Source: Clostridia bacterium
GTDB taxonomy: Bacteria; Bacillota; Clostridia; UBA1381
Length of the DNA stretch: 52,238 nt
NCBI GenBank assembly: GCA_036310525.1
Contig: JAXJRQ010000166.1
Coordinates: 1-52,238, forward strand
Direction of reading: 5' to 3'
In this document: positions 14,842 through 50,221 of the stretch, one piece after another
How the letters are laid out: each line of letters begins with the position of its first letter
How positions within the stretch are numbered: the stretch's first letter is position 1
Position numbers and translations under genes: made by a program
The notes under the pieces: model-generated
The model's database searches: none
Told to the model about the DNA's origin: nothing
Seen by the model: the letters and a program-made list of their open reading frames with translations, nothing else

Positions 14842-14881
14842 AATTTATTTCCTTTCCGTGCCTTGGGCACAAAACAAATAA

Positions 14882-16153: not shown

Positions 16154-16189
16154 CAGCCGCTCCTTTCACCTATATAATTTAAAGAATCT

Positions 16190-17239: not shown

Positions 17240-17240
17240 T

Positions 17241-18605: not shown

Positions 18606-18714
18606 ATGCTATATCGCATCCCCCTTCTGTACACAGTTTATATGTTTTTTTCCTTTTATCTTTAAATATAGGGAGCGGCAGTGAAGAATTTCCCCAAGCC
18701 GTTCCCTTATCAGT

Positions 18715-20154: not shown

Positions 20155-20181
20155 TCTTAATCCCCCCTAAACTATTTTTGC

Positions 20182-22476: not shown

Positions 22477-22571
22477 TATTTTATTTCCTTCTTATTATAA
22501 TTTGTTTCTAATCAAGTAAATCCCGCTATCCTTCGGACAGTGGGAAAATCATTTACTTTAAGACATATACA

Positions 22572-23057: not shown

Positions 23058-23067
23058 TAACTTACTC

Positions 23068-24000
23068 CTATATTTTCTCTAAAACTCTTAATTTCGCACT
23101 TTTCGACCTGGAATTATTCTCTGTTTCCTCACGATCCGGAAGTATGGGTTTTCGTGTCACAAGCTTTGCTTTGGGAACGTTACCGCATACGCACACCGGA
23201 AATTCCTTCGGACATATACATCCCTGTGCCAGTGAAGCAAATGTCTGCTTCACAATTCTGTCCTCAAGAGAATGGAACGTTATTATTGCAAGTCTTCCGC
23301 CCGGCTTTAATGCCTCGCAAAAATCACTGATTGCATCATGAAGAATTCCAAGTTCGTTATTCACTTCTATGCGGATAGCCTGAAAAATTCTCTTTCCGGG
23401 ATGTCCGCCGTCCATTCTTGCACTCTTAGGTATAGCCGCCTTGATTATTTCAACCAGTTCAAAGGTTGTTTCAAGTGGCTTTTTTTGTCTTTCGTTAATT
23501 ATAAATTCAGCTATTCTTTTTGACCATTTTTCTTCGCCGTAGTCAAAAAATATTCTTGTTAAATCCTCGCATGAGTATGAGTTCACCACATCATACGCTG
23601 ATTTTGCGCTTTCTCTGTTCATACGCATATCGAGAGGCGCATCATGCATATAGCTGAAACCTCTTTCACCATTGTCGAGCTGATATGAGCTTACGCCCAA
23701 ATCAAGTATGGCACCGTCAATACTGTCAATGCCAAGCTCGTCCAATATACTCTTAATTCTGCAAAAATTGCTGTTGACAACACTTACACGCTTGTCAAAG
23801 CACTGCAGTCTTTTTGTTGCAGCGGCAATAGCCTCTTTGTCCTGATCAATACCGATAAGCTTACAGGTATCATTTGACGATAACAGCTTATACGAATGAC
23901 CGCCTCCGCCAAGAGTTCCGTCAACATACACTCCGTTATCCTTAACATTAAGAAGCTTCACGCTTTTTTCAAGAAGTACCGAAACATGCTTAAATTCCAT
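23068..24000 (-). CDS. rsmH: 16S rRNA (cytosine1402-N4)-methyltransferase RsmH
   Basis: HVSVLL, DGTLGGGGHS, DLGVSSYQLD and SAKLRV motifs. Confidence 0.95.
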   Translation of the reverse strand: MEFKHVSVLLEKSVKLLNVKDNGVYVDGTLGGGGHSYKLLSSNDTCKLIGIDQDKEAIAAATKRLQCFDKRVSVVNSNFCRIKSILDELGIDSIDGAILDLGVSSYQLDNGERGFSYMHDAPLDMRMNRESAKSAYDVVNSYSCEDLTRIFFDYGEEKWSKRIAEFIINERQKKPLETTFELVEIIKAAIPKSARMDGGHPGKRIFQAIRIEVNNELGILHDAISDFCEALKPGGRLAIITFHSLEDRIVKQTFASLAQGCICPKEFPVCVCGNVPKAKLVTRKPILPDREETENNSRSKSAKLRVLEKI

Positions 24001-35045: not shown

Positions 35046-35074
35046 TCGACAAATCGTATTAAAATTGATATAAT
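35046..35074 (+). promoter_or_regulatory. Candidate sigma-A promoter of the FHA/kinase operon
   Basis: TCGACA (35046-35051), a 17-nt spacer and TATAAT (35069-35074), 30 nt upstream of the first ATG (35104), which has a GGGGGA RBS. Confidence 0.45.
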
Positions 35075-35103: not shown

Positions 35104-35502
35104 ATGAAAAGAGGATTGAATGCTGCGTTGGGAATTGTAATCACAGCGGCAGTGTATTTTTTATTTTTTCTGACCGGCATAGGATGCCCTATACGCTTTC
35201 TTACGGGTATTTCGTGCTGTGGTTGCGGAATGACACGAGCGCTGATACGGCTTTTTTCGCTTGATATACAAGGCGCACTTTACTATCATCCGCTTATATT
35301 TTTCATTCCCGTATATGCGGTTTTATTTATAGTCAGAAAAAAATTCAGAGAACCTGTTTTTCGTATTATAACATGGATATTTGTCCTGACATTTCTTGCA
35401 GTTTATTTCACAAGACTCTTTGACCCCGAAAATATAATAGTCACAGCAAACTTAAAGGATGGCTGTATTTTTAAAATCTTACATTATATTATGGAGGGAT
35501 AA
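35104..35502 (+). CDS. DUF2752-family membrane protein
   Basis: Signature Cys cluster GCPIRFLTGISCCGCGMTRA after the first TM helix, and about 4 TM helices. Confidence 0.75.
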   Translation: MKRGLNAALGIVITAAVYFLFFLTGIGCPIRFLTGISCCGCGMTRALIRLFSLDIQGALYYHPLIFFIPVYAVLFIVRKKFREPVFRIITWIFVLTFLAVYFTRLFDPENIIVTANLKDGCIFKILHYIMEG

Positions 35503-35506
35503 TTTT

Positions 35507-36382
35507 ATGATTGAAGAAAGAAGAAGTCTTGGTATGTATATTTTGCTCACGCTTGTAACGTGCGGCATTTATTCTTTTTATTTTTATTATAAATTTGCGC
35601 AGGACATGAATACGGTCTGCGACGGCGACGGCGAACACACAGCCGGTCTCGGATATTATATTCTTTTCAGTTTTCTTACATGCGGAATATATGCATTTTA
35701 CTGGTATTACAAAGTCGGTAACAGACAAGCGGCAAACGGTCCGAGATACGGACTGCACATTCAGGACGACGGAAAAACTATTCTTGTATGGCTTCTCCTT
35801 GGCTCTTTGCTTGCGGGTATAGGCGCATGGATTGCATTGTATCTGATGATTAAAAATCTTAATATGCTTGCACATGCCTACAACAATTCAGGTAATGCGC
35901 ATGCACAGTATAACAATGCACCGAACAACAACTTCAATCAGTATCCGCCTCAGAATTATAACAACTCATACCGTTCAATTTCAAACGACGGCATGAATTA
36001 TTCAAACACGATGGACAGTATGAACACTGCACCGCTGAATTTAAACACTTCATTTCAGACTCAGACAGAACAAAGCTCAGCCGGACTTTACTGCAAAACA
36101 GGCGAATTTGCCGGCAGCACCTTCCCTATTAACATGAACGAAAACATTATAATAGGAAGAGAAATGTCGTGTAATATAAAATTTGATGCAAATACTCCGA
36201 ACGTCAGCCGCAGACATTGCACTGTGTATTTTGACGGACAAGTGTGGATTACCGATAACGGTTCAAGCTTCGGAACATATCTTGATAACGGAACAAGACT
36301 TACTCCCAATGAGAGAGTACCGCTTTCAAAAGGCGAAGGCTTCTATCTCGGCAACAAAAACATCAGTTTCACAATAATGTAA
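35507..36382 (+). CDS. DUF4234-type membrane domain + N/Q/Y-rich linker + C-terminal FHA domain
   Basis: Duplicated TCGIY(S/A)FY(F/W)YYK motif typical of DUF4234. Low-complexity linker at aa 124-188. FHA motifs GREMSCNIKF...VSRRHCTV...SSFGTYLDNG. Start at ATG 35507 (GGAGGG RBS), not 35459. Confidence 0.8.
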   Translation: MIEERRSLGMYILLTLVTCGIYSFYFYYKFAQDMNTVCDGDGEHTAGLGYYILFSFLTCGIYAFYWYYKVGNRQAANGPRYGLHIQDDGKTILVWLLLGSLLAGIGAWIALYLMIKNLNMLAHAYNNSGNAHAQYNNAPNNNFNQYPPQNYNNSYRSISNDGMNYSNTMDSMNTAPLNLNTSFQTQTEQSSAGLYCKTGEFAGSTFPINMNENIIIGREMSCNIKFDANTPNVSRRHCTVYFDGQVWITDNGSSFGTYLDNGTRLTPNERVPLSKGEGFYLGNKNISFTIM

Positions 36383-36388
36383 AAAATC

Positions 36389-37309
36389 ATGGATAATTAC
36401 AAAACTACGGCAAAAATACTTATAGCAGTTAATATCATACTGATTACGGCGACGGCAATTTTGCTTGTCGGCTATAGTTTAAAAAAATCAAAGGAAACAA
36501 CGTCCTCACCTGCACCAACTGCACAGGTGACGGCACAGCCGACTCCTTCGGTTACTCAACAACCTACACCTATCCCTACAAGTCAGGCAAAAAAGGCAAC
36601 AATCAGACAGTTCCTGAAAAATGCTGCCAAGCCCATAGGCAGTACAATGTATGTATACGGTGGCGGCTGGAACAAAGAGGATACGGGCGCAGGCGAATAT
36701 GCCCGTACATTGGGTGTTCCTCAGGAGTGGAAGGATTTTGCAGTGCTTCAGGACAGTACGTATGACAGTTCAAAGCATAAATACGAAATAACAAAAGGTC
36801 TTGACTGTTCAGGATATGTCGGTTGGGCGCTGTACAACACTCTCGAAACAGAAAACGGTAAACCCGGATATGTATTCCTTGCTCAGTCTTATGCCGACAT
36901 CCTTTCCGCAATGAATCTGGGCGAAAAAACAGCAAAGCAAGATGTCGGAAGCTATAAACCGGGCGATATATTGAGCTCAGCCGAGGATGAACATGTGTGG
37001 ATTGCTATCGGAGAATGCAGTGACCACAGCGTTTTACTGTTTAACTGCACTCCTCCCGGAGTATCTCTCTACGGCACAGCAACTCCTGACGGAGAAAAGA
37101 ACAGTATGGCTGTAAGGCTTGCTAAAAAATATATGCGTGAACATTTCCCGCAGTGGTACGGGAAATATACAAATTATGCACGTGGCACATCGTATCTCAC
37201 AAACTATGACCGTTTCAGATGGGATATGAAAAGCAGCGGCGTTATGTCTGACCCTGACGGGTACTACAATCTTACGCCCGAACAAATTCTTGACGATATA
37301 TTTAATTGA
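36389..37309 (+). CDS. Membrane-anchored NlpC/P60-superfamily (papain-like) cell-wall hydrolase candidate
   Basis: N-terminal TM anchor and a Pro/Thr/Gln-rich linker. YVYGGGW...GLDCSGYVGWALY (catalytic Cys context), then PGDIL...EHVWIAIG..DH (His). An insertion between the GG and DCSG blocks makes it atypical. Confidence 0.5.
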   Translation: MDNYKTTAKILIAVNIILITATAILLVGYSLKKSKETTSSPAPTAQVTAQPTPSVTQQPTPIPTSQAKKATIRQFLKNAAKPIGSTMYVYGGGWNKEDTGAGEYARTLGVPQEWKDFAVLQDSTYDSSKHKYEITKGLDCSGYVGWALYNTLETENGKPGYVFLAQSYADILSAMNLGEKTAKQDVGSYKPGDILSSAEDEHVWIAIGECSDHSVLLFNCTPPGVSLYGTATPDGEKNSMAVRLAKKYMREHFPQWYGKYTNYARGTSYLTNYDRFRWDMKSSGVMSDPDGYYNLTPEQILDDIFN

Positions 37310-37323
37310 TAAGAGGTTATAAA

Positions 37324-38982
37324 ATGGACAATTTAAACAGACTATGTAAAGGATGCATGCAGTTTACTGCCGAAAATGGCGTCTGCCATGCGTGCGGATT
37401 CAACGAACACACACATAATCCACTGCCGCATCATCTAAAACCCGATACAATTCTTGGCGGAAAATATATTCTCGGCAGAAAAATCGGTGAAGGCGGTTTC
37501 GGAATTACTTATATGGGACTTGACCTTAATCTTAATATGCGTGTTGCAATCAAGGAATACTTCCCGTCGGGATGCGTGACACGTAACACCGATGTTTCCA
37601 ATACGATAACCGTTTTTGACGGTGAGCCTTTGAAGATGTTTGAGCACGGACGTGACAAATTTATTGAAGAAGCAAGAACAATCGCACAGTTTCAGGACAG
37701 TGACGGTATTGTTTCGGTCAAGGACTTTTTCCTCGAAAATGGAACAGCTTATATTGTAATGGAATATCTTGACGGCGAAAACCTCAAGGATTTTCTTGCA
37801 AAGAGAGGCGGAAAAATAAGTGTTGACGAAGCATTAAAAATGGTACGACCTATTTTATCGTCACTTTATCAGCTCCACAAAAACGGACTTATTCACCGTG
37901 ACATAAGTCCCGATAATATTATGATTACCAAAAAGGGCAAGGTTAAGCTGATAGATTTCGGTGCGGCACGAGATGTTAATATCAACAAGAGCCTTTCTAT
38001 TCAGCTAAAACCCGGCTATGCTCCTGAAGAGCAGTACAGAACTCACGGCAAACAGGGTGCATGGACTGATGTTTATGCTCTTTGCGCAACTATCTACAGA
38101 ATGATTACGGGAATAGTTCCCGAAGAATCAAACGAGCGCCTGATTGAGGACCATTTAAAGACCCCTTCATCCATGGGTATTAATATCCATCCGCAGACAG
38201 AACAATTGCTTATGCAGGGACTGGCAGTGAGGTATACGGAAAGAGTGCAGAATATAGAAACGCTTTATAATGCATTTTATAAAGGTGCTTCTGCACCTGC
38301 TTCAAGAGGTTTTTCGCAACCACCTCAGCCTGTATCCATAAATAATACACCGCAAAAAAGTAAGTGGTTTGCTATTTCGCTTATCTTGGCAGGCTGTGCA
38401 GTTCCACTTTTGCTTGTTGTTGTGATTTTTGCCACAATCAGCGTGTACAATGCAAACAACACTCCTGACCCGACTATTGAGCCAATCAGTACAGTTATCC
38501 CTGCAACGGAAGCCCCGGCAACTCCTGCACCGACACCGGTACCTTTGCCGCCACGTCAGGATTTGTACAATGCCTCATATACATACAAGCGTATGAGTGA
38601 AATACATTCTTCATATCTTGCAAGTGATGAAGAATTTTATGAGCTCAGAGAAACAATTCTTGATTTTAATTATAAATGTACAGACTACATAAATAACGGA
38701 AATATGTCTGTGTTTATGTATTTAAGACCCGACACAACCGCATATAATCAGCAAACTAAGTATAAGAAGGACCATCCCACTCTTCGTGAGGTGCTTAATA
38801 ATGTCGATGTTATAAATGCGCGTTATGACGGAAGATGGTACTATTTATGGGTTGCTGAGAACAAAACCGTTACGGAAAACGGCACATCAAAAACAAAAAC
38901 AGACCACTGGGTTTATAAGCTTGAAAGAACAAATACGGGCTTCGTTATTTTAGACTACACCTACGACCCCGCATTTACCTGA
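37324..38982 (+). CDS. Hanks-type Ser/Thr protein kinase 1: Zn-ribbon + kinase + TM + unassigned ectodomain
   Basis: CKGC..x12..CHAC ribbon. Kinase motifs GEGGFG, VAIKEY, HRDISPDN, DFG and YAPEE. TM WFAISLILAGCAVPLLLVVVIFATISVY, a Pro/Thr linker and a 142-aa C-terminal domain. Start at ATG 37324 (AAGAGG RBS). Confidence 0.9.
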   Translation: MDNLNRLCKGCMQFTAENGVCHACGFNEHTHNPLPHHLKPDTILGGKYILGRKIGEGGFGITYMGLDLNLNMRVAIKEYFPSGCVTRNTDVSNTITVFDGEPLKMFEHGRDKFIEEARTIAQFQDSDGIVSVKDFFLENGTAYIVMEYLDGENLKDFLAKRGGKISVDEALKMVRPILSSLYQLHKNGLIHRDISPDNIMITKKGKVKLIDFGAARDVNINKSLSIQLKPGYAPEEQYRTHGKQGAWTDVYALCATIYRMITGIVPEESNERLIEDHLKTPSSMGINIHPQTEQLLMQGLAVRYTERVQNIETLYNAFYKGASAPASRGFSQPPQPVSINNTPQKSKWFAISLILAGCAVPLLLVVVIFATISVYNANNTPDPTIEPISTVIPATEAPATPAPTPVPLPPRQDLYNASYTYKRMSEIHSSYLASDEEFYELRETILDFNYKCTDYINNGNMSVFMYLRPDTTAYNQQTKYKKDHPTLREVLNNVDVINARYDGRWYYLWVAENKTVTENGTSKTKTDHWVYKLERTNTGFVILDYTYDPAFT

Positions 38983-39004
38983 TAAAAAGGAGAGTATACA
39001 CACG

Positions 39005-40663
39005 ATGAAAGATATTAGTACACTTTGTACAGCCTGTATGCAGGATAAAGGAGACGCTGTTATCTGTCCGCATTGCGGATACAACAGCAACGCCGAAACT
39101 CCGGCACATCATCTTAACCCCGGTACAATTCTTAACGGAAAATACTGGGTCGGAAACGCAATTGGTGAAGGAGGTTTCGGAATTACATATATAGGCTATA
39201 ACCTCAATCTTGAAATCAAGGTTGCGATTAAGGAATACTTCCCTAACGGACTTGTTTCAAGAGACACGACAAACACCGATACAGTAACGATTTTTTCAGG
39301 CTCTACACAGCAGATGTATGAGCAGGGACGTGATAAATTTGTCAATGAAGCAAAAGCACTTGCAAAATTTGATAATCTTGAGGGTATAGTTTCCGTAAAG
39401 GACTTTTTCATGGAAAACGGAACGGCGTATATCGTAATGGAATATGTTGAAGGCGAAACCTTAAAATCCTTCCTCAAGAGAAACGGCGGTAAAATAGCAC
39501 CTGAAAACATGTTTGTGATGGTGAAGCCGCTTATGAAGTCACTTGCCGAAGTTCATAAAAAGGGACTTATTCACCGTGATATAAGTCCGGATAATATTAT
39601 GATTACAACCGATTCAAAGGTAAAGCTTCTTGATTTCGGTGCGGCACGTGACATAAGCGCAAACGGAAATAAAAGTCTTTCCATACAGTTAAAGCCGGGC
39701 TATGCACCCGAAGAGCAATACAGAACTCACGGCAAGCAAGGGCCGTGGACGGACGTCTATTCCCTTTGTGCAACAATATACCGTGCAATCACAGGAGTAC
39801 AGCCTATTGAATCGCTAGAAAGAATTCAAAGCGACGCACTCAAAAAGCCTTCCGAGCTCGGAGTTATGATAGACCCCGTAAAAGAAAATGCACTTATGAA
39901 CGGTATGGAGGTTTTTGCTGACAGAAGATTTCAGAGCGTAAGCGCACTGTACAATGCATTGTTCGGCGAATATTCACCAACGTCAGGCGCAGTTTACAAC
40001 GTACCGCCGCAGACTAACGTACCTCCCGCTCCGCCCGTAAATACTGCACCCGTATACACACCCAAAAAGCCAAATATGGCTTTAATTGCCGCCGCAGCGG
40101 CAGGTGCATTCGTGGTGATGTGCATAATCGTGACGGCAGTTCTGGTAACGGGAAGCTTAAAAAGCAGCAACAATTCCATACAGGAGGTTACGGCTACGCC
40201 CGCAACGCCTGCACCGACCGAAGTACCCGTTCCCGTATTTACGAAGCTTGAAGCCTCCTCAACACGAGGTACGGATATGACATCGGGTGCTCCCGTTGAG
40301 TATTTTCCGGCATACGCAATGGACGGAAATTATGCCACAACATGGTCACCGAACAGAAACGTAAGCCTTACACCTACACTTACACTGCTTGCAGACACAA
40401 AGCAGTACGTGACAGGTATAAAAATGGCAAACGGATATTTCAAGTCGGAAGAAACCTACAGACGAAACAGACGTATCACAAAGGTAACGATTGAGTATGA
40501 GGGCGGTCAGACAACCCGAAACTTCGGAATTGACCAGTACAGAATCATGCAGGATATACGCTTTGACGTACCCGTTATGACTTCATACATAAAAATCCAC
40601 GTCCTTGATACGCACTACGGCGACTGGAAGGATATATGTATCAGCGAAATTGAGGTTTACTAA
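39005..40663 (+). CDS. Hanks-type Ser/Thr protein kinase 2: Zn-ribbon + kinase + TM + discoidin-like (F5/8 type C-like) ectodomain
   Basis: CTAC..x12..CPHC ribbon. The kinase core is highly similar to kinase 1, including HRDISPDN. The ectodomain reads AYAMDGNYATTWSPN...ITKVTIEY...YIKIHVLDTHYGDWKDICISEIEVY, resembling discoidin/glycan-binding jelly-rolls. Exactly 552 aa, the same as kinase 1. Confidence 0.9.
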   Translation: MKDISTLCTACMQDKGDAVICPHCGYNSNAETPAHHLNPGTILNGKYWVGNAIGEGGFGITYIGYNLNLEIKVAIKEYFPNGLVSRDTTNTDTVTIFSGSTQQMYEQGRDKFVNEAKALAKFDNLEGIVSVKDFFMENGTAYIVMEYVEGETLKSFLKRNGGKIAPENMFVMVKPLMKSLAEVHKKGLIHRDISPDNIMITTDSKVKLLDFGAARDISANGNKSLSIQLKPGYAPEEQYRTHGKQGPWTDVYSLCATIYRAITGVQPIESLERIQSDALKKPSELGVMIDPVKENALMNGMEVFADRRFQSVSALYNALFGEYSPTSGAVYNVPPQTNVPPAPPVNTAPVYTPKKPNMALIAAAAAGAFVVMCIIVTAVLVTGSLKSSNNSIQEVTATPATPAPTEVPVPVFTKLEASSTRGTDMTSGAPVEYFPAYAMDGNYATTWSPNRNVSLTPTLTLLADTKQYVTGIKMANGYFKSEETYRRNRRITKVTIEYEGGQTTRNFGIDQYRIMQDIRFDVPVMTSYIKIHVLDTHYGDWKDICISEIEVY

Positions 40664-40684
40664 TCATCGGAAAGGATGATATTT

Positions 40685-41464
40685 ATGATAACAAAACAGA
40701 CAATTAATATGGACGACAGTCCGCATCTGATAACGCCCTATAACGCACAGCACATCGGCAGACGTGATGAACAGCAGGACTACTTTGCGTTTTCGGACAT
40801 ATACAACGCCGAGGAATACAACCGCATAGGTGCACTTGCAATTCTTGCGGACGGAATGGGCGGTCTTGAGGGCGGAAGACTTGCAAGCCGCACTGCAACA
40901 GAGGTTTTTCTCGATATTTATACAAACTGCGAAAGTGAAATTCCCGATATTGACGAAAGACTTGTCTATGCCGCAAAAAAAGCAAATGACGCTGTTGTAA
41001 AGCTTGACGGTGCAGGTACAACGCTGTGTGCAATTGTGATTAAGGATTCACAGCTTCACTGGCTCTCTGTCGGTGACAGCAGAATATATCTTTACCGCAA
41101 CGGCACTCTTCGCCGTCTGAACAAGGAGCATAACTACGAAAATGTGCTTAATGAAAAGGTTGAAAGCGGTGAGATTTCATTGTCGGAAGCGGTAAATGAC
41201 CCAAACCGTGCCGCACTCACAAGCTACATCGGCATTGATGAGCTTGATGAAATTGATATAAACACCGATATTTTTCCGCTGTTTAAGGGTGATTCGGTCA
41301 TGATGTGCTCGGACGGTCTTTACAGAACGCTTTGTGATGAGGAAATGGCATACATCGTGAAAAATGCAGAAGAGGACGTATGTGATTTTCTTATAAGCAA
41401 GGCACTTGAGAAAAATATCGAAACACAGGACAACATTACCGTGGTATTGATGGACGTAGACTGA
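40685..41464 (+). CDS. PP2C (PPM) family Ser/Thr phosphatase 1
   Basis: RDEQQDYF, ILADGMGG, GTTLCAIVI, VGDSRIYLYRNG, MMCSDGL and DNITVVLMDV. Start chosen at ATG 40685 (GGAAAGGA RBS). Confidence 0.85.
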   Translation: MITKQTINMDDSPHLITPYNAQHIGRRDEQQDYFAFSDIYNAEEYNRIGALAILADGMGGLEGGRLASRTATEVFLDIYTNCESEIPDIDERLVYAAKKANDAVVKLDGAGTTLCAIVIKDSQLHWLSVGDSRIYLYRNGTLRRLNKEHNYENVLNEKVESGEISLSEAVNDPNRAALTSYIGIDELDEIDINTDIFPLFKGDSVMMCSDGLYRTLCDEEMAYIVKNAEEDVCDFLISKALEKNIETQDNITVVLMDVD

Positions 41465-41491
41465 TACCGCATTAGCGAAACGGAGAAAATA

Positions 41492-42586
41492 ATGAAAAAG
41501 AAATTATTTGCATTTATAATAACCGTACTGTTGATTTGTATTGAAGCATGCTGCGTTTATGCATCAGATGCTCCCCGTGCGGTAAAAAACGCTGCAAAAT
41601 CGGCAGTTGAGCTTAGTGTCAATACAAGCTTCGGTACAAAAACAGTAACAGCCTTTGCAGTAAACAAAGGCAGTAAAACCAAATATCTCGTTACAAACCT
41701 CTGGGCAATCGAGGGTTATACGGGAGATATTATTGTAAATTCAGGAAACGACGAAACAATAACTGCGACAGTCATTGCGACTGATGAAGTTAAAAATATT
41801 GCGGTTCTTGAATTATCAGGCACGCCTGATGGTGTTAAAAACATAAAAATCAAGGTTACGGATGCCGAAACAGAAACAGAGGTATATACACTCGGTTTTG
41901 CGGCAAAGGACAACGAAGAAACGATTTTTTCAGGTAATATACAGTCATTAAATTTATTTACATCGGGAAATATGTCAGCAGACATTTATCAGGTAAGTGC
42001 TACAGTAAATGACACAAACAACGGCGGTATGCTTCTTGATAAAAACGGAAACCTTCTCGGTTTATGCTTTTATGACGGAAACGCCGACATAAACAAGGCA
42101 ATTACCTCAAAAACAATTGCAGACGTGCTTGACAATCATGACATCGGCTATAAAAAGGCAACTCTTTTGTATCTCTTTATCACAATTTTCATAGTTTTGG
42201 CACTTATTGCATTTGCAGTATGGAGAGTGCTGGAGTTTTTAAAGAGCAAGCGTGAAAATTCACCAATGCTAATCGGAAAAAGCGGTGATTTCCGTTCACA
42301 GAGGATTATTCTTACCTCGGAAAACATCTGCATAGGCCGTGACGCAAAAGCCTGTCAGGTGGTTATAACGAACGACCCAAAGGTGAGCAGATGCCACTGC
42401 AGTATACATTATGATAAATTGAAAAATCTTTTTGTGCTGACGGATTTATCCTCTACACACGGAACATTCATAAACGGCTCAAAAAAGCTTGAAGCAAATG
42501 TTCCCGTATACCTTAATTCAGGCTCAGCATTTTCACTCGGCGGAAATTCAACTGAATTTATTGTAAGCGAAGGAGGGATGCTCTGA
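41492..42586 (+). CDS. Signal peptide + trypsin-like (S1C-like) ectodomain with substituted triad + TM + cytoplasmic FHA
   Basis: The Trypsin_2-like block order is conserved, but TNLW replaces TNaH, NIAVLEL replaces DiAvLk, and TNNGGML replaces GnSGGpl. TM LLYLFITIFIVLALIAFAVW. FHA motifs GRDAKACQVVI..VSRCHCSI..STHGTFINGS. Confidence 0.75.
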   Translation: MKKKLFAFIITVLLICIEACCVYASDAPRAVKNAAKSAVELSVNTSFGTKTVTAFAVNKGSKTKYLVTNLWAIEGYTGDIIVNSGNDETITATVIATDEVKNIAVLELSGTPDGVKNIKIKVTDAETETEVYTLGFAAKDNEETIFSGNIQSLNLFTSGNMSADIYQVSATVNDTNNGGMLLDKNGNLLGLCFYDGNADINKAITSKTIADVLDNHDIGYKKATLLYLFITIFIVLALIAFAVWRVLEFLKSKRENSPMLIGKSGDFRSQRIILTSENICIGRDAKACQVVITNDPKVSRCHCSIHYDKLKNLFVLTDLSSTHGTFINGSKKLEANVPVYLNSGSAFSLGGNSTEFIVSEGGML

Positions 42587-43302
42587 TGCATATTGCAAGA
42601 ATAAGCGGTAAGGGCGGACGTGAGAAAAACGAAGACGCAATCGGACGTCTGAGAAAGGACGGAATGTATTGCTTTGTGCTTGCAGACGGTCTGGGAGGTC
42701 AGGGCAGTGGCGAGGTTGCTTCAGCACTTGCCGTAAAGACTGTGCTTGAATGCTTTGATGCCCATGCCGAGGTTTCGGAGGAAATCATTTATGCCTATAT
42801 CGAAGCGGCACAGAACGCCATCATAGAAGCACGGCTTGAAAATCCACGCTATGCCGATATGGGCACAACCATAACGGTACTTCTTACAGACGAAAAGAAT
42901 GCAGTCTGGGCACACTGCGGTGACAGCCGTATTTACCGTTTCAGGAAAAACAAAATACAGGAAATCACAGACGACCACTCTGTAGCCTTTGCATCATTTT
43001 TAGCAAAGGAAATCAGCTATAACGAAATTCGCACAAGTCCCGACCAGAACAGACTTTTACGCTCATTAAGCGACGGAAGTAAATTCCGTCCCGATATTTC
43101 TGAGCTTATAAAGGTGGATAAGAAAACCGCATTCCTCATGTGCAGTGACGGTTTCTGGGAGTATGTTGACGAGGATTATATGGAGTATACCATAAAAAAG
43201 GCACGCTCTCCCAAAGAATGGCTTGAAGATATGCTCGATGAACGGGCAAGACTTGCTCCTCCCGATGCAGACAACTTCAGCGCTATTGTAGTATTTATCT
43301 GA
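42586..43302 (+). CDS. PP2C (PPM) family Ser/Thr phosphatase 2
   Basis: NEDAIG, VLADGLGG, GTTITVLL, CGDSRIYRF, LMCSDGFW and DNFSAIVVFI. The ATG shares one base with the upstream TGA (TGATG). Confidence 0.85.
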   Translation: MHIARISGKGGREKNEDAIGRLRKDGMYCFVLADGLGGQGSGEVASALAVKTVLECFDAHAEVSEEIIYAYIEAAQNAIIEARLENPRYADMGTTITVLLTDEKNAVWAHCGDSRIYRFRKNKIQEITDDHSVAFASFLAKEISYNEIRTSPDQNRLLRSLSDGSKFRPDISELIKVDKKTAFLMCSDGFWEYVDEDYMEYTIKKARSPKEWLEDMLDERARLAPPDADNFSAIVVFI

Positions 43303-43364
43303 TAATATGTAAATTTTGCAGAGTATTCTGCTTTAATTGTAAAAACGAAAGGAAATGATTAATT

Positions 43365-43949
43365 ATGTCAATGAAAAGATGCAATAACGGACACTTCTAT
43401 GATGATGCAAAGCATCCGTCATGCCCATACTGCGGTATATCCGATATGGACGCTTCAAAAACAATGCCTATTATAGCTCCGGCTTCAAGCGCACCCAAGG
43501 CGCAGGAAACAATAGGCCGCACAGTTGCAATGGCTCCGCAGGAGAGTGCGCCCGGACGTACCTCTGCCGCTGATGAGGGAAAAACCGTTGCAATCATGAA
43601 AAAGGAAAAAGGAATTGACCCCGTTGTAGGCTGGGTTGTTTGTATAGAAGGCCCCTCAAAGGGTCAGGATTACCGCATAAAATCAGAGCGTAATTTCATC
43701 GGCAGAGACTCGTCGATGGACATCGTTATAAGCGGTGATAACACTATTTCAAGAGAAAACCACGCAAGCATCAGCTACAACCCGAAAAACAGCAGTTTCA
43801 GACTGCTCCCCGGTGACAGCCACGGTCTTGTTTACCTTAACGATGAAGATATATATACTCCCACCGAGCTCAAAAAGGGCGATATAATCGAGCTTGGCGA
43901 AACAAAGCTGATATTTGTTCCGTTATGCGAGGGCGGCTTCACATGGTAA
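43365..43949 (+). CDS. Cytoplasmic Zn-ribbon + disordered linker + FHA protein
   Basis: N-terminal CNNGH...CPYCG, an Ala/Pro/Ser/Thr-rich linker, and FHA motifs GRDSSMDIVI...ISRENHASI... Confidence 0.8.
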   Translation: MSMKRCNNGHFYDDAKHPSCPYCGISDMDASKTMPIIAPASSAPKAQETIGRTVAMAPQESAPGRTSAADEGKTVAIMKKEKGIDPVVGWVVCIEGPSKGQDYRIKSERNFIGRDSSMDIVISGDNTISRENHASISYNPKNSSFRLLPGDSHGLVYLNDEDIYTPTELKKGDIIELGETKLIFVPLCEGGFTW

Positions 43950-45412
43950 AAAAACTAAGTATTCTTCTTTGTGCTCTTTTGTGCGCCGTTTCAGTGTCCG
44001 TATCAGCAAATGAGCTGTATTTTGCGGATGTTTTGCAGATGCACTGCTTTTCGGACATTATGCGCACATACGTTGAACTGAGCGATAAAAACTCAAGTCC
44101 CATAGAAAAACCCTCACGTGCGGATGTTGTCGGATATATTGACGGCGTAACGCTTACAACACAAAGCATAAACCGCTTTGGTGATACCGGTGAGGGTACT
44201 GCCGACATATTTCTTGTGGATGTATCAGGCTCAATTAAAAACGCACAGCTTGATAAGGTAAAGAGTGCAATCAAAACATGGGCATCAAACATGAAACCCA
44301 ATGACAGAATTGCTGTCGTTTCTTTTGGTGATTCAATTGAAACTCTGACGGATTTTTCAGGAGATATAAACGCTGTATCCGCCGCCGCTGACAAGCTCAC
44401 AAATCACGGCAGTAAAACACAGCTCTACGGCGGTATTTCACACGCTGTTAAGCTTGCATCAAGAAATGATACAGACTTACCCAAACGCAAAAATATCATT
44501 CTTATAACCGACGGCGTTAATGACTCAAACGGCGGAATAAGTGAAAATGATATGCTCAAAGAACTGAAAACTGCGCTTGTTCCCGTTTACAGTCTGTGGA
44601 TGTCAAACAGCCGTGCCAATAATTCAAAGGGCAGATCAACACTTAATTCTGTTACCGATTATTCGGGCGGAAGAATATATGATATGTCTGATAAGAGTAT
44701 TGAAACCGTATACGGTTGGGTAAAAGACAATATCAACAACTCCTATACCGTTGATTTTGCCTATAACGGCACTGTACCCGATAACAACATTCATAAATTC
44801 AGCATCAAGGTTGCTCAAAACGGAAGGATTTTTGAGGACAGCGTTGATTTTACAATGAAAAAAAGCGAAGAAAGCTCGCACACATACTCCGTTTCAGCTA
44901 CACAAGATGAAGAAACGGACGAAAAAAGTAATATCGGATTTATTCTCATTATAGTTCTGATTGCGGCATTGGTTGCCGGTGCAGCTGTTGCGCTTATCAT
45001 CATTATACGCAACAAAAATAATACGGATGAGTATATTTATCCTATATCCTCCAGCGATTACACTCCGCAAGACGACACAGGAAGCAAAACAATCAATGCT
45101 GACTACACTGCAGCCGTACATAGCACAAATAATGTGGTTTTTGTTTCAATGCGTACAGGAAAAAGAAACAGTATAAGCATTTCGGGAAGCATATTGGCAG
45201 GCAGAAGCGGTCAGTGCGATTTTATTATTGAAAATGATACCGTTTCGGGTAATCATGCAGTAATAACTCTTGCAAACGAAAAGCTGTATGTTGAAGATAT
45301 GACCTCAGCAAACGGAACATTCGTCAACGGCAGAAAAACAAACGGAATTACCGAATTGAAAAACAACGATATTGTTATGTTTGGTAATGAAGAATATAAA
45401 GTAAACTTCTGA
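43943..45412 (+). CDS. Signal peptide + vWA ectodomain (intact MIDAS) + TM + cytoplasmic FHA
   Basis: Signal MVKKLSILLCALLCAVSVSVSA. MIDAS elements DVSGS...GSKTQ...ITDG. TM IGFILIIVLIAALVAGAAVALIIII. FHA motifs GRSGQCDFII..VSGNHAVI..SANGTFVNG. The ATG lies inside the last codons of the upstream gene (7-nt overlap). Confidence 0.85.
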   Translation: MVKKLSILLCALLCAVSVSVSANELYFADVLQMHCFSDIMRTYVELSDKNSSPIEKPSRADVVGYIDGVTLTTQSINRFGDTGEGTADIFLVDVSGSIKNAQLDKVKSAIKTWASNMKPNDRIAVVSFGDSIETLTDFSGDINAVSAAADKLTNHGSKTQLYGGISHAVKLASRNDTDLPKRKNIILITDGVNDSNGGISENDMLKELKTALVPVYSLWMSNSRANNSKGRSTLNSVTDYSGGRIYDMSDKSIETVYGWVKDNINNSYTVDFAYNGTVPDNNIHKFSIKVAQNGRIFEDSVDFTMKKSEESSHTYSVSATQDEETDEKSNIGFILIIVLIAALVAGAAVALIIIIRNKNNTDEYIYPISSSDYTPQDDTGSKTINADYTAAVHSTNNVVFVSMRTGKRNSISISGSILAGRSGQCDFIIENDTVSGNHAVITLANEKLYVEDMTSANGTFVNGRKTNGITELKNNDIVMFGNEEYKVNF

Positions 45413-45446
45413 TATTTTCAAAAATCCGGAAAGGAAAAATTCACTA

Positions 45447-47768
45447 ATGGCTAAACTTCGTAAGGAAAATATTTTAATCGTTATCGACGCCTCTATGGAG
45501 GTTTGTGAAATTGACCTTAATTCGTTTCACAAAAATCGTATAAGCTTTGGCAGAGATGAATCATGCAATATTGTTTTCAAATCACAGATTGTATCAAAAT
45601 GTCACGGATATATTGAGTTTGTTGAAGACAAAATATATTTATACGACAACCGAAGCACCAACGGCATTATCGTAAACGGACACCTTTATAAAACAGCCGC
45701 AAACGGTGATGCAGAGGTGCACAGACTTTGTGACGGTGACATTATAAAGATAGACAACGGTGACCCCAATAACAGCCACAGCCACGGAGTATTGATGATG
45801 TACACCACACGCAAAAGCTCAGGCAGATGGCAGAAATTCAACATTATGAGCAGACAGCGCATCACAATAGGCAGAAGCTCACAGTGCGATTTGCACCTTG
45901 ACAGCATCAGTGTATCACGTAATCATGCGGTGATTACATCCAATAACGGTATGCTGTTTATTGAGGATTTGAACAGCTCCAACGGTGTATTTGTCAATGG
46001 TCACAGAGTTATTGGCCAAACTCAGCTTCACGAAAAGGACATAATCCTTATTGCCCACTCCATGATGATATTCACATCGGGAATGCTTCTGTATAAGCTT
46101 AAAATGGGCGGTACAAGGGTTGTGATGAAGGATATATCCAGAGTTGTAACCGTTAAAAACCAACGTCGCTACATACTTCAGAATGTAAATCTTACGGTTG
46201 AGCCAAACGAATTTATTGCCGTTATAGGCGGTTCAGGTGCCGGCAAATCTACTGTTATGAACGCAATGAGCGGATTTGAGCAGGCAACAAGTGGAAATGT
46301 TTACGTTAACGATACAGATTTATACAAAAACTATCAGGTTCTTAAAAACATGATAGGCTATGTTCCTCAGCAGGATATTATATACGAAAATATCACCTTA
46401 CAGAAAATGCTTGAATACTCAGCAAAAATGCGTATGTCAGAGGACGTAAGCGAAGCCGAAAGACAAAAGCGCATAGCTGAGGTTCTTCAGATGGTTGAGC
46501 TTTCGGAGCATAAGGATAAATTTATCCGTTCGCTTAGCGGCGGTCAGAAAAAGAGAGCAAGTATTGCTGTTGAGCTTCTTGCAGACCCCGGTCTGTTCTT
46601 CCTCGACGAACCCACCTCAGGACTTGATCCCGGAACGGAAGCAAGCCTGATGAATACCTTAAACAATCTCGCAAAGCAAAAGGGCAAAACAATAGTAATG
46701 GTAACACATACTACGCAAAACCTTCATTTGTGCGATAAAATACTGTTTATGGGCAAAGGCGGAAGAATTTGTTTTTACGGCTCACCGGCTGAGTGTATGG
46801 ACTTTTTCGGTGTGGATAATCTTACCGAAATCTATAATAAGGCACTTAGTGATGAGGACGTTAATAAATGGTCGTCAAAGTATCTTCACGAATATGGAAA
46901 TGACACAGGCGATAACAGAAAAAGCACTAACGGAAAAATCCCCGTACAGAAAAAAGCATCATTTATACGTCAGTTTGCGATACTTTCTTCACGCTATATG
47001 ACACTTATCAAAAATGACACACAAAGACTTCTGATGATATTTTTACAGCCAATTATAATCGCATTGCTTATTGCATGCGTGGCAAGCGATGATGTCTTTG
47101 ACATATACAACTCCACAAAATCCATCTTATTCGCAATGTCATGCGCAGGAATTTGGGTCGGATTGTTCAATTCAATTCAGGAAATATGTAAAGAGCGTAA
47201 TATATTGAAGCGTGAATATATGGCAAATTTACGGCTTGGCTCTTATGTACTGTCGAAATTTGCAGTGCAGTTTTTGTTAAGTGCCATTCAGGCATTTATT
47301 ATGACTCTGATGTTTATAATAACTGTAGGCTCACCTGAGAGCGGAGTTGCTTCTGACAGCGCATTTTTTGAAATGTTTATGACTATGCTTCTTACGGTAT
47401 TTTCATCGTCTGCAATCGGTATAGTTGTGTCGGCAATTTCAAAAAACAGCGACAAAGCAATGACAACCGCACCATTTTTACTTATAGTTCAGCTCTTATT
47501 CTCAGGAATACTGTTTGAGCTTAAAGGTGCTACCGAAAAAATCGCATATTTTACGGTCAGCAAATGGTCAGTGTCGGCGTTCGGAACAATAGCTAATCTC
47601 AATGCGCTTGAAATGTCTATACCTAATATGCCTCATGAAGCAGAGGACGTTTACGAATACGTATTCTCCAATATTGCTTCGTCATGGGCGATTATGACGG
47701 CATTTGTAGTAGTTTGCTTTATTGCAAGCGTATTTATACTTAAAAATGTTTCAAAGGATTCAAGATAA
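45447..47768 (+). CDS. FHA-FHA-NBD-TMD fused ABC transporter (ABC-2/ABCG-type half transporter), Rv1747-like architecture
   Basis: FHA1 reads FGRDESCNIVF..VSKCHGYI..STNGIIVNG. FHA2 reads IGRSSQCDLHL..VSRNHAVI..SSNGVFVNG. Walker A GGSGAGKST, signature LSGGQKKR, Walker B LFFLDEPTSGLD, H-loop VMVTHT, and about 6 C-terminal TM helices. Confidence 0.9.
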   Translation: MAKLRKENILIVIDASMEVCEIDLNSFHKNRISFGRDESCNIVFKSQIVSKCHGYIEFVEDKIYLYDNRSTNGIIVNGHLYKTAANGDAEVHRLCDGDIIKIDNGDPNNSHSHGVLMMYTTRKSSGRWQKFNIMSRQRITIGRSSQCDLHLDSISVSRNHAVITSNNGMLFIEDLNSSNGVFVNGHRVIGQTQLHEKDIILIAHSMMIFTSGMLLYKLKMGGTRVVMKDISRVVTVKNQRRYILQNVNLTVEPNEFIAVIGGSGAGKSTVMNAMSGFEQATSGNVYVNDTDLYKNYQVLKNMIGYVPQQDIIYENITLQKMLEYSAKMRMSEDVSEAERQKRIAEVLQMVELSEHKDKFIRSLSGGQKKRASIAVELLADPGLFFLDEPTSGLDPGTEASLMNTLNNLAKQKGKTIVMVTHTTQNLHLCDKILFMGKGGRICFYGSPAECMDFFGVDNLTEIYNKALSDEDVNKWSSKYLHEYGNDTGDNRKSTNGKIPVQKKASFIRQFAILSSRYMTLIKNDTQRLLMIFLQPIIIALLIACVASDDVFDIYNSTKSILFAMSCAGIWVGLFNSIQEICKERNILKREYMANLRLGSYVLSKFAVQFLLSAIQAFIMTLMFIITVGSPESGVASDSAFFEMFMTMLLTVFSSSAIGIVVSAISKNSDKAMTTAPFLLIVQLLFSGILFELKGATEKIAYFTVSKWSVSAFGTIANLNALEMSIPNMPHEAEDVYEYVFSNIASSWAIMTAFVVVCFIASVFILKNVSKDSR

Positions 47769-49276
47769 TGAAAAAACTTTTAATAAGCATCATTACAACT
47801 ATATTATGTGTATTTATGTCCTCTGCGTTTGCAGAGGACATAAATGTTACGGTTAATTCCGAGTATGTGGATTTTGATACTCCACCCGTTATCATCGACG
47901 GAAGAACACTTATTCCCATACGTGCAGTAGCAGAGAAAATCGGTCTGAAAGTTACATGGGATCAGGAAACACAAACCGCCTCCATAATAAACCGTGACAA
48001 AACAGTAAATCTGACTATAGGAAGTAACATTCTTACAGACAACGGTGCAGAATTCACAATAGATGTTGCGCCGCAGATTATAAACGACAGAACATGTCTC
48101 CCCTTGCGTGCCGCCGCAGAAGCATTTGGTGCAAATGTGAACTGGGACGGTGAAAAAAGGCTTGTGGAGGTTAATGTACCGGAAATAAATAAAGTTATTA
48201 AATATCAGGGAACCTTCGGCGAAAATGAGCTTTCGTACATTTACAGCGATGAAATTTTTGATAACACCACAACCGTAAATTACGATTTGGCAAAACTTTC
48301 TGCTGCGGCTGTAATGGCTGCTGAAAGCACCGATTCAATTAAGGATTTTCTTGAAAAATGCGGTTTTGGTGATATAAAAACCTATAACTATGATTCTGAC
48401 TCTTCCATAAAAGAAAATTACCGCCATAAATCCGATTTTACACTTGCACAAAAGGAAATCAGCGGTAAAAATGTTGTTTCGGTTATCATAAGAGGTACTG
48501 CAGGAAACGAGTGGTACAGTAATTTTGATATATCACAAAACAACAAGGAAAGCAACGTTCATTACGGCTTTAATACAGCCGCAGAGGAAATAGTAAAAGC
48601 TGTAACGGAATATGCACCCGATGACAGTCTTATATGGATTTGCGGCTACAGCCGAGGCGGTGCAGTTGCAAATCTCAGCGCAAAAATGCTTACAGACAAG
48701 CGTAAAAAAATCACCGCTTATACCTTTGCCTCGCCAAACACCGTAAAGACCAAAAAGGCAGATAAGAAGGTAAATGTGTACAATTTTGTAAGCGACAACG
48801 ATATAATCACAAAAATCCCGCCATCAGAGGATAAATGGAATTATACCCGCCACGGTACAACCATAGTTCCCGACAATTATTCTGACACGCTCATGAACGG
48901 AAAGTTTCTTGAGCTTACGGGCAGAAATTACAATGCAATACGTGATGAAGATGTCAGGAGCGCTGTCTGTTATATTGCCGATATTGCCGATAATGTTAAT
49001 GACTACTATAATCTGAAGCACGGCGACTATACTCCGTATGAATTTTTTACCGACTGCGTTGTTCCGCTTCTTACAAAAAGCTCTTTTTCGGGTATCAAGC
49101 TCATATTTGATCCCGTCTACGGTAATCTGATGCGATTTTTCCTGCTTCACTCAAGCGGTGAATTTGCACAGCAGTATAAAGACTTTATTACCATAGAAGC
49201 TTATGACGACTGTAACGGCATTGTATATGAGCATTGTATGGAATCGTATTATAGCAAAATTTGCTTCACAAAATAA
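47768..49276 (+). CDS. Secreted copper-amine-oxidase-N-terminal-like domain + class 3 lipase (alpha/beta hydrolase)
   Basis: Signal peptide, then two stalk-domain half repeats (IDGRTLIPIRAVAEKIGLKVTWD / NDRTCLPLRAAAEAFGANVNWD). Lipase_3-like nucleophile elbow ICGYSRGGAVAN (GxSxG). The ATG overlaps the ABC gene stop (TAATG). Confidence 0.75.
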   Translation: MKKLLISIITTILCVFMSSAFAEDINVTVNSEYVDFDTPPVIIDGRTLIPIRAVAEKIGLKVTWDQETQTASIINRDKTVNLTIGSNILTDNGAEFTIDVAPQIINDRTCLPLRAAAEAFGANVNWDGEKRLVEVNVPEINKVIKYQGTFGENELSYIYSDEIFDNTTTVNYDLAKLSAAAVMAAESTDSIKDFLEKCGFGDIKTYNYDSDSSIKENYRHKSDFTLAQKEISGKNVVSVIIRGTAGNEWYSNFDISQNNKESNVHYGFNTAAEEIVKAVTEYAPDDSLIWICGYSRGGAVANLSAKMLTDKRKKITAYTFASPNTVKTKKADKKVNVYNFVSDNDIITKIPPSEDKWNYTRHGTTIVPDNYSDTLMNGKFLELTGRNYNAIRDEDVRSAVCYIADIADNVNDYYNLKHGDYTPYEFFTDCVVPLLTKSSFSGIKLIFDPVYGNLMRFFLLHSSGEFAQQYKDFITIEAYDDCNGIVYEHCMESYYSKICFTK

Positions 49277-49282
49277 ATCAAT

Positions 49283-49316
49283 AAATGTACTCTGAATATT
49301 CAGGGTACATTTTTTG
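49283..49316 (+). terminator. Rho-independent terminator closing the 12-gene operon
   Basis: Stem aaatgtactctgaa / ttcagggtacattt (one G-U pair) followed by TTTT. Confidence 0.65.
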
Positions 49317-49417
49317 AATTTAAGGTATGTTTTTTACAAAAACTATTGACCTCATATTTTTTGCATGCTATAATAAATTTAACAATTTTTCAAAAGATAT
49401 TTATGAGGAGAACAGAA

Positions 49418-50221
49418 ATGGATATTTCAAAATTTATGAAAAATGAAAACGAAAAACCGCTTGATAATCTGGTTACAAACGGAGGCTTTTGCGGTATTTT
49501 CAGGACAATAGCATGTATAGGCGACAGCCTTTCATCAGGCGAATTTGAGTCATTTGAGGCAGAAGAAAAGGGTTACCATGACTACTTTGACTATTCATGG
49601 GGACAATACATTGCAAGAGATGCCGGCTGTACTGTATATAACTTTTCACAAGGCGGTATGTCGGCGAAGTTTTATCGGAGCTTTGCACGTGAAAAAGGCT
49701 TTTTTAATGATGAATATAAAAGTCAGGCATACATCATAGCGCTTGGTGTAAATGATACCTCACAAATGTTGGCAAATGAGGTTGAGTTCGGTGACATCAG
49801 TGACATAGACTTAAGCGATTACGCAAAAAACAAGCCAACCTTTGTCGGATACTATGCTGCAATAATTGCAAAATATCAGCAAATTCAGCCAAAGGCAAAG
49901 TTTTTCCTTATGACAATTCCATCAGGTATCGAACCGCCGGAGCGTGAACAAATATATGACAAGCATGCAAAGCTTTTGTACAAGTTAGCAGAAATGTTTG
50001 ATAACTGCTATGTCCTTGATTTCAGAAAATATGCACCTGTTTACGATGAAGAGTTCAGAAAGAACTTTTTCCTCGGCGGTCATATGAACGCTTCAGGTTA
50101 CAGATTGACTGCTCTTATGGTTGAGTCATATATTGACTATATTATCCGCAATAACCCCGAAGATTTTTCACAGGCAGGCTTTATCGGAACACCGTTCCAT
50201 AATTCCACCGCTAAGTGGTAA
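49418..50221 (+). CDS. SGNH/GDSL-family hydrolase
   Basis: Block I IACIGDSLSSGE, block III GVND and a late GGHMN block. Start set at ATG 49418 (GAGGAG RBS), not 49346. Confidence 0.8.
   Translation: MDISKFMKNENEKPLDNLVTNGGFCGIFRTIACIGDSLSSGEFESFEAEEKGYHDYFDYSWGQYIARDAGCTVYNFSQGGMSAKFYRSFAREKGFFNDEYKSQAYIIALGVNDTSQMLANEVEFGDISDIDLSDYAKNKPTFVGYYAAIIAKYQQIQPKAKFFLMTIPSGIEPPEREQIYDKHAKLLYKLAEMFDNCYVLDFRKYAPVYDEEFRKNFFLGGHMNASGYRLTALMVESYIDYIIRNNPEDFSQAGFIGTPFHNSTAKW

Follow-up and report, generated by a model that had tools for sequence, protein, structure and literature searches.

Analysis of a 52,238-nt stretch of DNA from a Clostridia bacterium (contig JAXJRQ010000166.1 of assembly GCA_036310525.1; this whole stretch is called the window below) revealed that the open reading frame (ORF) at 45447..47768 on the forward strand encodes a half-transporter in which two FHA domains, a nucleotide-binding domain (NBD) and an ABC-2-type transmembrane domain (TMD) follow one another in a single chain of 773 aa. 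On sequence comparison this protein, referred to as the pump, is a true, distant homologue of Rv1747 of Mycobacterium tuberculosis, and it carries no linker of the Rv1747 type between its FHA domains. We propose, with a probability of roughly 0.6, that the pump is a homodimeric ABCG-type exporter whose rigid tandem FHA module reads phosphothreonine (pThr) in trans, the mark being written by a network of kinases, phosphatases and further FHA proteins encoded beside it.

The pump ORF starts with ATG, and its stop codon lies within the span. Pfam profiles matched FHA in two stretches (E 5e-34; best FHA2 stretch, residues 139-202), ABC_tran at residues 244-391 (E 3e-30) and ABC2_membrane at residues 508-710 (E 3e-22), and an AlphaFold2 model built from a 42-sequence alignment (the pump and 41 homologues) reached a mean predicted local distance difference test score (pLDDT) of 83.7 and a predicted template modelling score of 0.77. 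All on the plus strand, the parts of the gene are FHA1 (45468..45803; residues ~8-119, with model beta-strands at 9-120), the inter-FHA connector (45804..45827; residues 120-127, TTRKSSGR), FHA2 (45828..46097; residues 128-217, opened by W128), the NBD (46119..46841; residues 225-465, the ABC_tran match with the full motif set), a partly disordered and variable NBD-TMD linker (46842..46961; residues 466-505) and the ABC-2/ABCG-type membrane domain (46962..47765; residues 506-773), in which a connecting helix precedes the transmembrane helices TM1-TM6 and TM5 is broken. The order FHA1, linker, FHA2, NBD and ABC-2 domain in one polypeptide, which a sequence-only reading of the window had claimed, was thus borne out by Pfam, the motifs and the model; the FHA profile matched both N-terminal modules, the model backed six helices in the membrane domain, and the short Ser/Thr-containing linker quoted in that reading, MYTTRKSSGRWQ, was located at residues 118-129.

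The NBD had also been described as complete, and every motif named could be read, each being invariant or nearly so among the 42 homologues: Walker A (G261-T269), the Q-loop (Q308), the LSGGQ signature (363-367), Walker B (F384-E388, with the catalytic Glu E388) and the H-loop (H421), together with the D-loop SGLD (391-394). A Foldseek search of the PDB with the pump model returned ABCG family members at all 50 of the top 50 places (ABCG1, G2, G5/G8, plant G16 and G25, and Cdr1), with a best E-value of 1.8e-25 and, for half-transporter targets, TM-scores of 0.70-0.84 over ~590 columns (0.75-0.84 for ABCG1, G2, G5, G8 and G25). The membrane domain searched alone against solved structures found ABCG2 at E 3e-4 and otherwise only ABCG23-like chains at E 0.3. 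The best NCBIfam family was TIGR00955 (ABCG/White subfamily), and the score of 235.8 bits, far under the curated cut-off of 736.35, does not make the pump a member of this eukaryotic pigment-precursor permease family. In its predicted fold, the transporter part is ABCG-like (type V), with the NBD N-terminal to the TMD. Eukaryotic ABCG half-transporters (ABCG2, ABCG1, ABCG5/G8 and plant ABCG25) share this order and fold with the pump, whose LSGGQ(K/R)KR signature is ABCG-like, at an identity of ~20%; the pump differs from them in its short extracellular loop and in its N-terminal FHA module, which they lack. The pump does not have the make-up of an importer-associated ABC ATPase: its NBD is fused to an ABC-2 TMD, and neither a substrate-binding protein nor an importer permease was found among the annotated proteins of the gene block. 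Since each chain has one NBD and one TMD, and since no second ABC gene was found among the block proteins (ORF list and Pfam), a homodimeric exporter is the natural reading.

A query of the 77-aa FHA-2 domain of Rv1747 retrieved only fragments from a large protein collection; M. tuberculosis and other mycobacterial DNA was recovered from public assemblies, where the M. tuberculosis stretch adjoins a kinase gene, and a 515-aa query read across assembly frameshifts yielded full-length Rv1747 (P0142, 863 aa). BLASTP aligned the pump with this protein in one colinear match that scored 327 bits (E 6e-104) at 31% identity over 636 residues; this match begins in FHA2, spans the NBD and reaches the end of the TMD (pump 139-756, Rv1747 228-849); between the two NBDs the identity is 39%. 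The best single-NBD ABCG chains in the PDB scored ~132 bits in phmmer against the 327 bits of Rv1747 in BLASTP, a rough comparison given that the programs differ. For the FHA region, the best match among solved structures was FHA-2 of Rv1747 (6cah, E 1.2e-8). FHA1 of the pump was much more divergent, scoring 26.9 bits against FHA-1 and 38.5 bits against FHA-2 of Rv1747. The description of the pump as a Firmicute counterpart of Rv1747 therefore held in both architecture and homology. The two proteins have in common the FHA-FHA-NBD-ABC-2 TMD order, a near-identical FHA2-NBD spacing, the canonical pThr-binding residues in both FHA domains and a Hanks kinase in the same co-directional gene block (PknF in the case of Rv1747), and it appears likely that the FHA-ABC fusions of Firmicutes and Actinobacteria go back to a single origin. 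They differ in setting, since Rv1747 belongs to a two-gene operon, whereas the block of 13 genes around the pump encodes two kinases, a pair of PP2C phosphatases and, besides the pump, four FHA proteins. The substrates suspected for Rv1747 are glycolipids of the mycobacterial envelope, phosphatidylinositol mannosides (PIMs) and lipooligosaccharides, which are not expected in Clostridia.

The most marked difference lay between the two FHA domains. In alignments of 42 and of 118 sequences (the latter comprising the pump and 117 homologues), the pThr-binding residues of FHA1 (G35, R36, S50, H53, N72 and G73) and of FHA2 (G142, R143, S157, H160, N179 and G180) were invariant or nearly so; as far as these alignments tell, both domains keep the canonical constellation, GR...SxxH...NG. 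The connector that joins them is fixed at ~6–8 residues. The segment at 114-128 measures 14 aa in 113 of the 118 homologues, G126 and W128 are conserved, and the model shows the final FHA1 strand (115-120) stopping at residue 120, with the opening strand of FHA2 at 129-132. The spacing from GR to GR has a median of 105 in the pump family, against 217.5 (range 194-238) in 112 mycobacterial orthologues; in the M. tuberculosis sequence, the extra ~100 residues between the FHA domains form a P/Q/G-rich disordered tract that holds the published phospho-acceptors, including T152 and T210 (PMC3138270; PMC8339232). The pump has no equivalent of T152, and only the T210-like position, T120, is partly kept. 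The other flexible segment, the NBD-TMD linker, had a pLDDT of 45-57 at residues 481-500 and showed no conserved columns and no conserved Thr among the 118 homologues.

These features bear on the analogy with the phospho-regulated linker of Rv1747 that had been drawn in the sequence-only reading. Rv1747 is positively regulated by phosphorylation (PMC3138270) and forms phosphorylation-dependent clusters (PMC8339232), and the pump could in principle be controlled in the same way, with a cluster kinase phosphorylating T120, T121, S124 or S125 of the connector and an FHA domain binding the product within or between pumps, leading to activation or clustering. The connector does contain a TT and an SS, Thr is the commonest residue in the column of T120 (69/118 homologues, 58%), and T120 stands 22 residues ahead of the FHA2 GR, compared with 23 residues for T208/210 ahead of the FHA-2 GR of Rv1747; this near-equal spacing makes a T210-like cis site at T120 conceivable. 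However, T120 sits at the end of the last FHA1 strand of the model, in a connector of fixed length, where access for a kinase or an FHA pocket would be poor, and 26 of the 118 homologues have no Thr anywhere in the segment 114-128. The residue at +3 from T120 is mostly K/R/T/S and not hydrophobic, whereas the Rv1747 sites have a hydrophobic residue there, pThr with a hydrophobic +3 being the reported preference of mycobacterial FHA domains (PMC3138270). Taken with the missing ~100-residue tract, these points led us to regard regulation in cis through the connector as unlikely, and the linker part of the analogy with Rv1747 did not stand.

Reading in trans was proposed because the pump lacks a long linker, because a Thr motif is conserved in the neighbouring Zn-ribbon-FHA proteins, and because a precedent exists in Rv1747, whose FHA-1 binds pT237 of Rv2623 in trans (PMC5549992). 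The small Zn-ribbon-FHA adaptor encoded in the window at 43365..43949 (plus strand; Pfam FHA) carries three [KR]-T-[VM]-x-[IM] motifs, whose residues T33, T53 and T74 are candidate phospho-acceptors. Among 37 non-identical Zn-ribbon-FHA proteins, 30 had a [DE][DE]x[KR]-T-[VI]-x-[FLIY] motif upstream of the FHA core, against 14% in shuffles, and in 21 of these 30 the motif lay exactly 15 residues before the core (GW[LMI]V). By analogy, the motif looks like a phospho-switch of the GarA/OdhI style; we take its fixed distance from the FHA core to be comparable with that of the N-terminal ETTS switch of GarA. Many related loci (L004-L081) contain two or three copies of Zn-ribbon-FHA paralogues.

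In the trans-reading exporter that we propose, the membrane-bound Hanks kinases encoded upstream, which have extracellular sensor domains, would convert a surface signal into Thr phosphorylation of themselves and of cluster partners, the leading candidate partner being the Zn-ribbon-FHA adaptor with its conserved [DE][DE]x[KR]-T-[VI]-x-hydrophobic motifs. The FHA pair of the pump, arranged back-to-back, would bind pThr on such a partner and thereby dock the pump into a kinase/FHA membrane assembly; docking would switch the ATPase or transport activity, up or down, and the two PP2C phosphatases would reset the system. A bolder form of this idea, which we put forward only tentatively, is that the linker-less tandem is a bivalent reader that recognizes a doubly phosphorylated partner, such as the Zn-ribbon-FHA protein or the juxtamembrane tails of the kinases, and that the block as a whole forms a membrane signalosome. 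If this were true, the two kinases and two phosphatases of the block would assemble with its seven FHA domains in a phosphorylation-dependent manner and couple cues received at VWA, protease, F5/8-C and NTF2-like domains to the gating of an ABCG-type exporter. Such an assembly would represent a widespread, uncharacterized envelope-signalling system of gut Firmicutes, distinct in mechanism from the linker-driven self-association of Rv1747.

The pump proved to belong to a large family. Examination of its best 120 matches in a collection of 5.8 billion proteins (47-74% identity) showed that 119 were full length and contained FHA, ABC_tran and ABC2_membrane, the other being a 495-aa fragment. When GTDB species were scanned, each represented by one genome, at least 600 pattern matches emerged, of which at least 592 were confirmed by tblastn, a number that may include other ABC proteins since one of the two scan patterns was a generic ABC motif. 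The best 80 of these loci were studied: nearly all aligned close to full length (three were cut by contig ends), and 79 of the 80 had FHA according to locally built hidden Markov models (HMMs). Their main groups were Lachnospiraceae (Blautia, Dorea, Anaerostipes and Eubacterium), Oscillospiraceae, Acutalibacteraceae, Erysipelotrichaceae (Allobaculum mucilyticum) and metagenome-assembled genomes (MAGs) of Bacilli, with one Coriobacteriia genome and a few MAGs under other labels. Within this set the closest species representative was an uncultured Blautia (60% identity), and cultured carriers included Dorea phocaeensis, Anaerostipes butyraticus and Allobaculum mucilyticum; the sequence of the window itself was found mainly in bovine and sheep gut metagenomes. 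The novelty that the sequence-only reading had implied is thus not supported, the family being widespread in gut Firmicutes, and the architecture is no surprise, as databases already list such entries as 'FHA domain-containing protein'.

A search of a representative library with the tandem-FHA module yielded 38,068 FHA matches, mostly multi-FHA proteins or fragments; 3,794 of them reached E ≤ 1e-10, and 21 reached E ≤ 1e-30. Colinear matches in a single stretch were mostly proteins of 770-800 aa, or shorter, fragment-like ones. In three proteins whose lengths are unlike the ~775 aa of the pumps (P0265, 1055 aa; P0263 and P0267, ~495 aa), the tandem-FHA module was colinear and had the same spacing; these may be fragments, or the same module fused to other C-terminal parts. 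Two MAGs labelled "uncultured Bacteroides sp." (L035 and L051) contained a pump copy of 46-47% identity, for which a binning or labelling error, not transfer, is the likely origin.

Around homologues at 71%, 60% and 48% identity, we found much of the set that surrounds the pump in the window, namely Ser/Thr kinases, PP2C, Zn-ribbon-FHA, VWA-FHA, DUF4234-FHA and DUF2752 proteins. Neighbours within 10 kb were counted in 47 species-genome loci with ≥8 kb on both flanks; searches by single-sequence tblastn were too insensitive and were replaced by locally built iterated HMMs. A kinase was present in 35 of the 47 loci, PP2C in 27, other FHA ORFs in 22, VWA in 15 and Lipase_3 in 0, and the counts for DUF2752, DUF4234 and the Zn ribbon are underestimates, these being small divergent domains. 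The remaining side of the census was that 12 of the 47 loci (L010, L021, L028, L035, L036, L053, L055, L073, L074, L083, L086 and L087) had none of these signalling genes (kinase, PP2C, other FHA) within this distance. Linkage of the pump to Ser/Thr signalling genes is therefore frequent, not obligatory: in the partnerless loci, the kinases may be encoded elsewhere, or there may be none.

Several points weigh against a trans-reading exporter. The partnerless loci include one whose pump is 57% identical to that of the window (L010). T120, kept in more than half of the homologues, could serve as a cis site of the T210 type. The direction of transport is read from the predicted fold, and literature searches gave no functional study of any Firmicute member. 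Finally, the sole transcriptomic-labelled run that contains the whole block, run X16, behaves like DNA.

Two intact FHA domains rigidly tethered to a membrane protein, with five further FHA or kinase membrane proteins encoded nearby, would also suit a role as a membrane hub or flux sensor that recruits FHA-binding partners and informs the kinases, and the phosphorylation-dependent clusters of Rv1747 (PMC8339232) offer a parallel. We consider such a scaffold very doubtful. All catalytic ABC motifs, E388 and H421 included, are invariant, which argues for a working ATPase or pump, and the 12 loci without cluster partners do not fit it either.

Pfam found all the neighbours that had been reported beside the pump: a pair of kinases, a pair of PP2Cs and four other FHA proteins. 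They lie in a block of 13 co-directional genes (35104..49276, plus strand throughout) with gaps of ≤70 nt, preceded by a strong promoter-like site (35046..35074, plus strand; 11/12 match with an extended TG, by consensus match only). The first gene encodes a DUF2752 membrane protein (35104..35502; domain search) and the second a protein with a DUF4234 membrane domain and, at its C-terminus, an FHA domain (35459..36382; Pfam), both of which recur near homologues. They are followed by a 306-aa membrane-anchored protein (36389..37309) with a transmembrane helix at its N-terminus, then a linker rich in P/T/Q and last a C-terminal domain in which DCSGYVGW occurs. This ORF had no match in Pfam, PADLOC or the PDB, and the single motif DCSGYVGW may be an NlpC/P60-like catalytic-Cys motif; a near-identical copy was present in one related contig (L001), whereas the 80 genome loci yielded no homologue.

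Next in the block are two Hanks Ser/Thr kinases, each with a Pkinase domain and one transmembrane helix, the first (37306..38982; helix read from the sequence) with an extracellular TcaA-type NTF2-like domain and the second (39005..40663) with an extracellular F5/8 type C (NADase_transloc) domain. The two are paralogous, having the kinase domain in common and unlike extracellular domains, and in homologous clusters the ectodomains are exchanged for PASTA, YARHG or DUF6273, which suggests diversifying sensor inputs over a constant cytoplasmic core. The first PP2C phosphatase (40676..41464; Pfam) is followed by a protein with an extracellular trypsin-like protease domain, one transmembrane helix and a cytoplasmic FHA domain (41492..42586; Pfam and sequence), and the second PP2C phosphatase (42586..43302; Pfam) by the Zn-ribbon-FHA adaptor. 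Immediately before the pump lies a gene for a protein with a signal peptide, an extracellular VWA domain, one transmembrane helix and a cytoplasmic FHA domain (43925..45412; Pfam and sequence). Downstream of the pump, a secreted-type protein with Cu_amine_oxidN1 and Lipase_3 domains (47768..49276; Lipase_3 E 1.8e-13) has a signal-peptide-like N-terminus, and a terminator-like hairpin after this gene (49283..49312, plus strand; 13 pairs and a T run, again a consensus match only) is likely the end of the transcription unit. The claim that these genes are co-operonic agrees with the co-directional block, its short gaps, one promoter-like site and one terminator-like hairpin. Run X16, labelled TRANSCRIPTOMIC, was rejected as evidence of co-transcription, as its contigs reach 185 kb and its depth stays flat where convergent genes meet.

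The reported overlap of the pump stop with the start of a secreted lipase was confirmed, the final A of the pump's TAA also being the first base of the lipase ATG (TAATG, a one-base overlap). From this overlap, export of a lipid or envelope component had been suggested, and one may imagine a precursor whose export is tied to the translationally coupled class-3 lipase and to a nearby GDSL esterase. ABCG-type pumps often move lipids, judging from the titles of the Foldseek-matched structures, and Rv1747 is suspected of glycolipid (PIM) export (PMC5549992). However, Lipase_3 occurs downstream of the pump only in near-identical contigs; unrelated genes take its place beside homologues at 71%, 60% and 48% identity, and none of the best 80 species-genome loci has Lipase_3 beside the pump. 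The GDSL gene, moreover, is separated from the block by the strong terminator-like hairpin and is preceded by a promoter-like site. That the lipase gene lies next to the pump is an accident of gene order in one lineage or, at most, an association that is recent and local; it gives the inference of lipid export no conserved support, and we judge lipase-coupled export highly improbable.

The composition of the block allows one more interpretation. Surface domains (VWA, trypsin-like protease, F5/8-C and NTF2-like) combined with cytoplasmic FHA domains, kinases and PP2Cs recall the actinobacterial Esr pathway, in which a vWA protein, a Ser/Thr kinase, a PP2C and an FHA output protein sense epibionts (PMC13622651). 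The block could by this likeness be a module for envelope surveillance, threat sensing or conflict, with the pump in defensive efflux or effector export. PADLOC, run on 10 proteins, gave domain-level matches for the kinases (mad6, PD-T4-6), the ABC ATPase (mad3) and one PP2C (PDC-M21C), with 5 of the 10 remaining unmatched. These matches are to generic kinase, ATPase and PP2C domains (components of MADS, PD-T4-6 and PDC-M21) and do not form a system, and no MoxR ATPase, beta-propeller sensor, polymorphic toxin or Esx gene was found among the block proteins. The setting also speaks against such a module: the locus stands beside holA and near the dcw cluster in DNA of ordinary GC (guanine-cytosine) content, and the presence of the dcw cluster, holA and tex marks the window as core chromosome. 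A conflict role for the pump thus appears quite unlikely. A vWA-MoxR ternary system (such systems are described in PMC7159879 and PMC13622651) was rejected as an identity for the block, in which vWA is present and MoxR and a beta-propeller were not found among the proteins.

Among other known systems, signalling of the GarA/OdhI type and of the Fha1/PpkA/PppA type in type VI secretion systems (T6SS) resembles the block in logic only. In these, a Hanks kinase and a PP2C write and erase pThr, FHA proteins read it, and a membrane machine or an enzyme is switched. Neither T6SS genes nor metabolic enzyme targets lie near the pump, unlike in those systems. Another parallel is EssC/EccC, the ATPase of the Firmicute type VII secretion system (T7SS), a membrane translocation ATPase that like the pump has tandem FHA domains at its cytoplasmic N-terminus (PMC13622651); its ATPase is of the FtsK/SpoIIIE type, whereas that of the pump is of the ABC type. 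Annotation, which covered 10-52 kb of the window, revealed no T7SS genes.

To our knowledge, Rv1747 is the only FHA-regulated ABC transporter that has been studied; its mechanism and substrate are debated, and its host is a slow-growing pathogen. Pumps of the homologous family are common among Firmicutes of gut and rumen that are not pathogens. Its linker-less form would separate what is general, two FHA domains reading pThr beside an NBD, from what is specific to mycobacteria, linker phosphorylation and phase separation, and the family could serve as a tractable system for how Ser/Thr phosphorylation gates an ABC exporter. The analysis also flags a recurrent FHA-rich kinase/phosphatase gene block in abundant gut bacteria.

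Two further observations concern the flanks of the block. The TTG listed as the start codon of the GDSL esterase (ORF 49346..50221, plus strand) coincides with its promoter-like site (49346-49374, 11/12 match), so the true start is probably a downstream ATG; in related contigs, this gene was called at 267-311 aa. With the hairpin before it and a promoter-like site of its own, it is probably a separate transcription unit. On the other side, at 13741..24000 on the minus strand, the window contains the dcw cluster with mraW, a PASTA-containing class B penicillin-binding protein, murE, murF, mraY, ftsW and murG, and genes for ApbE and a GT2 glycosyltransferase lie near this cluster.

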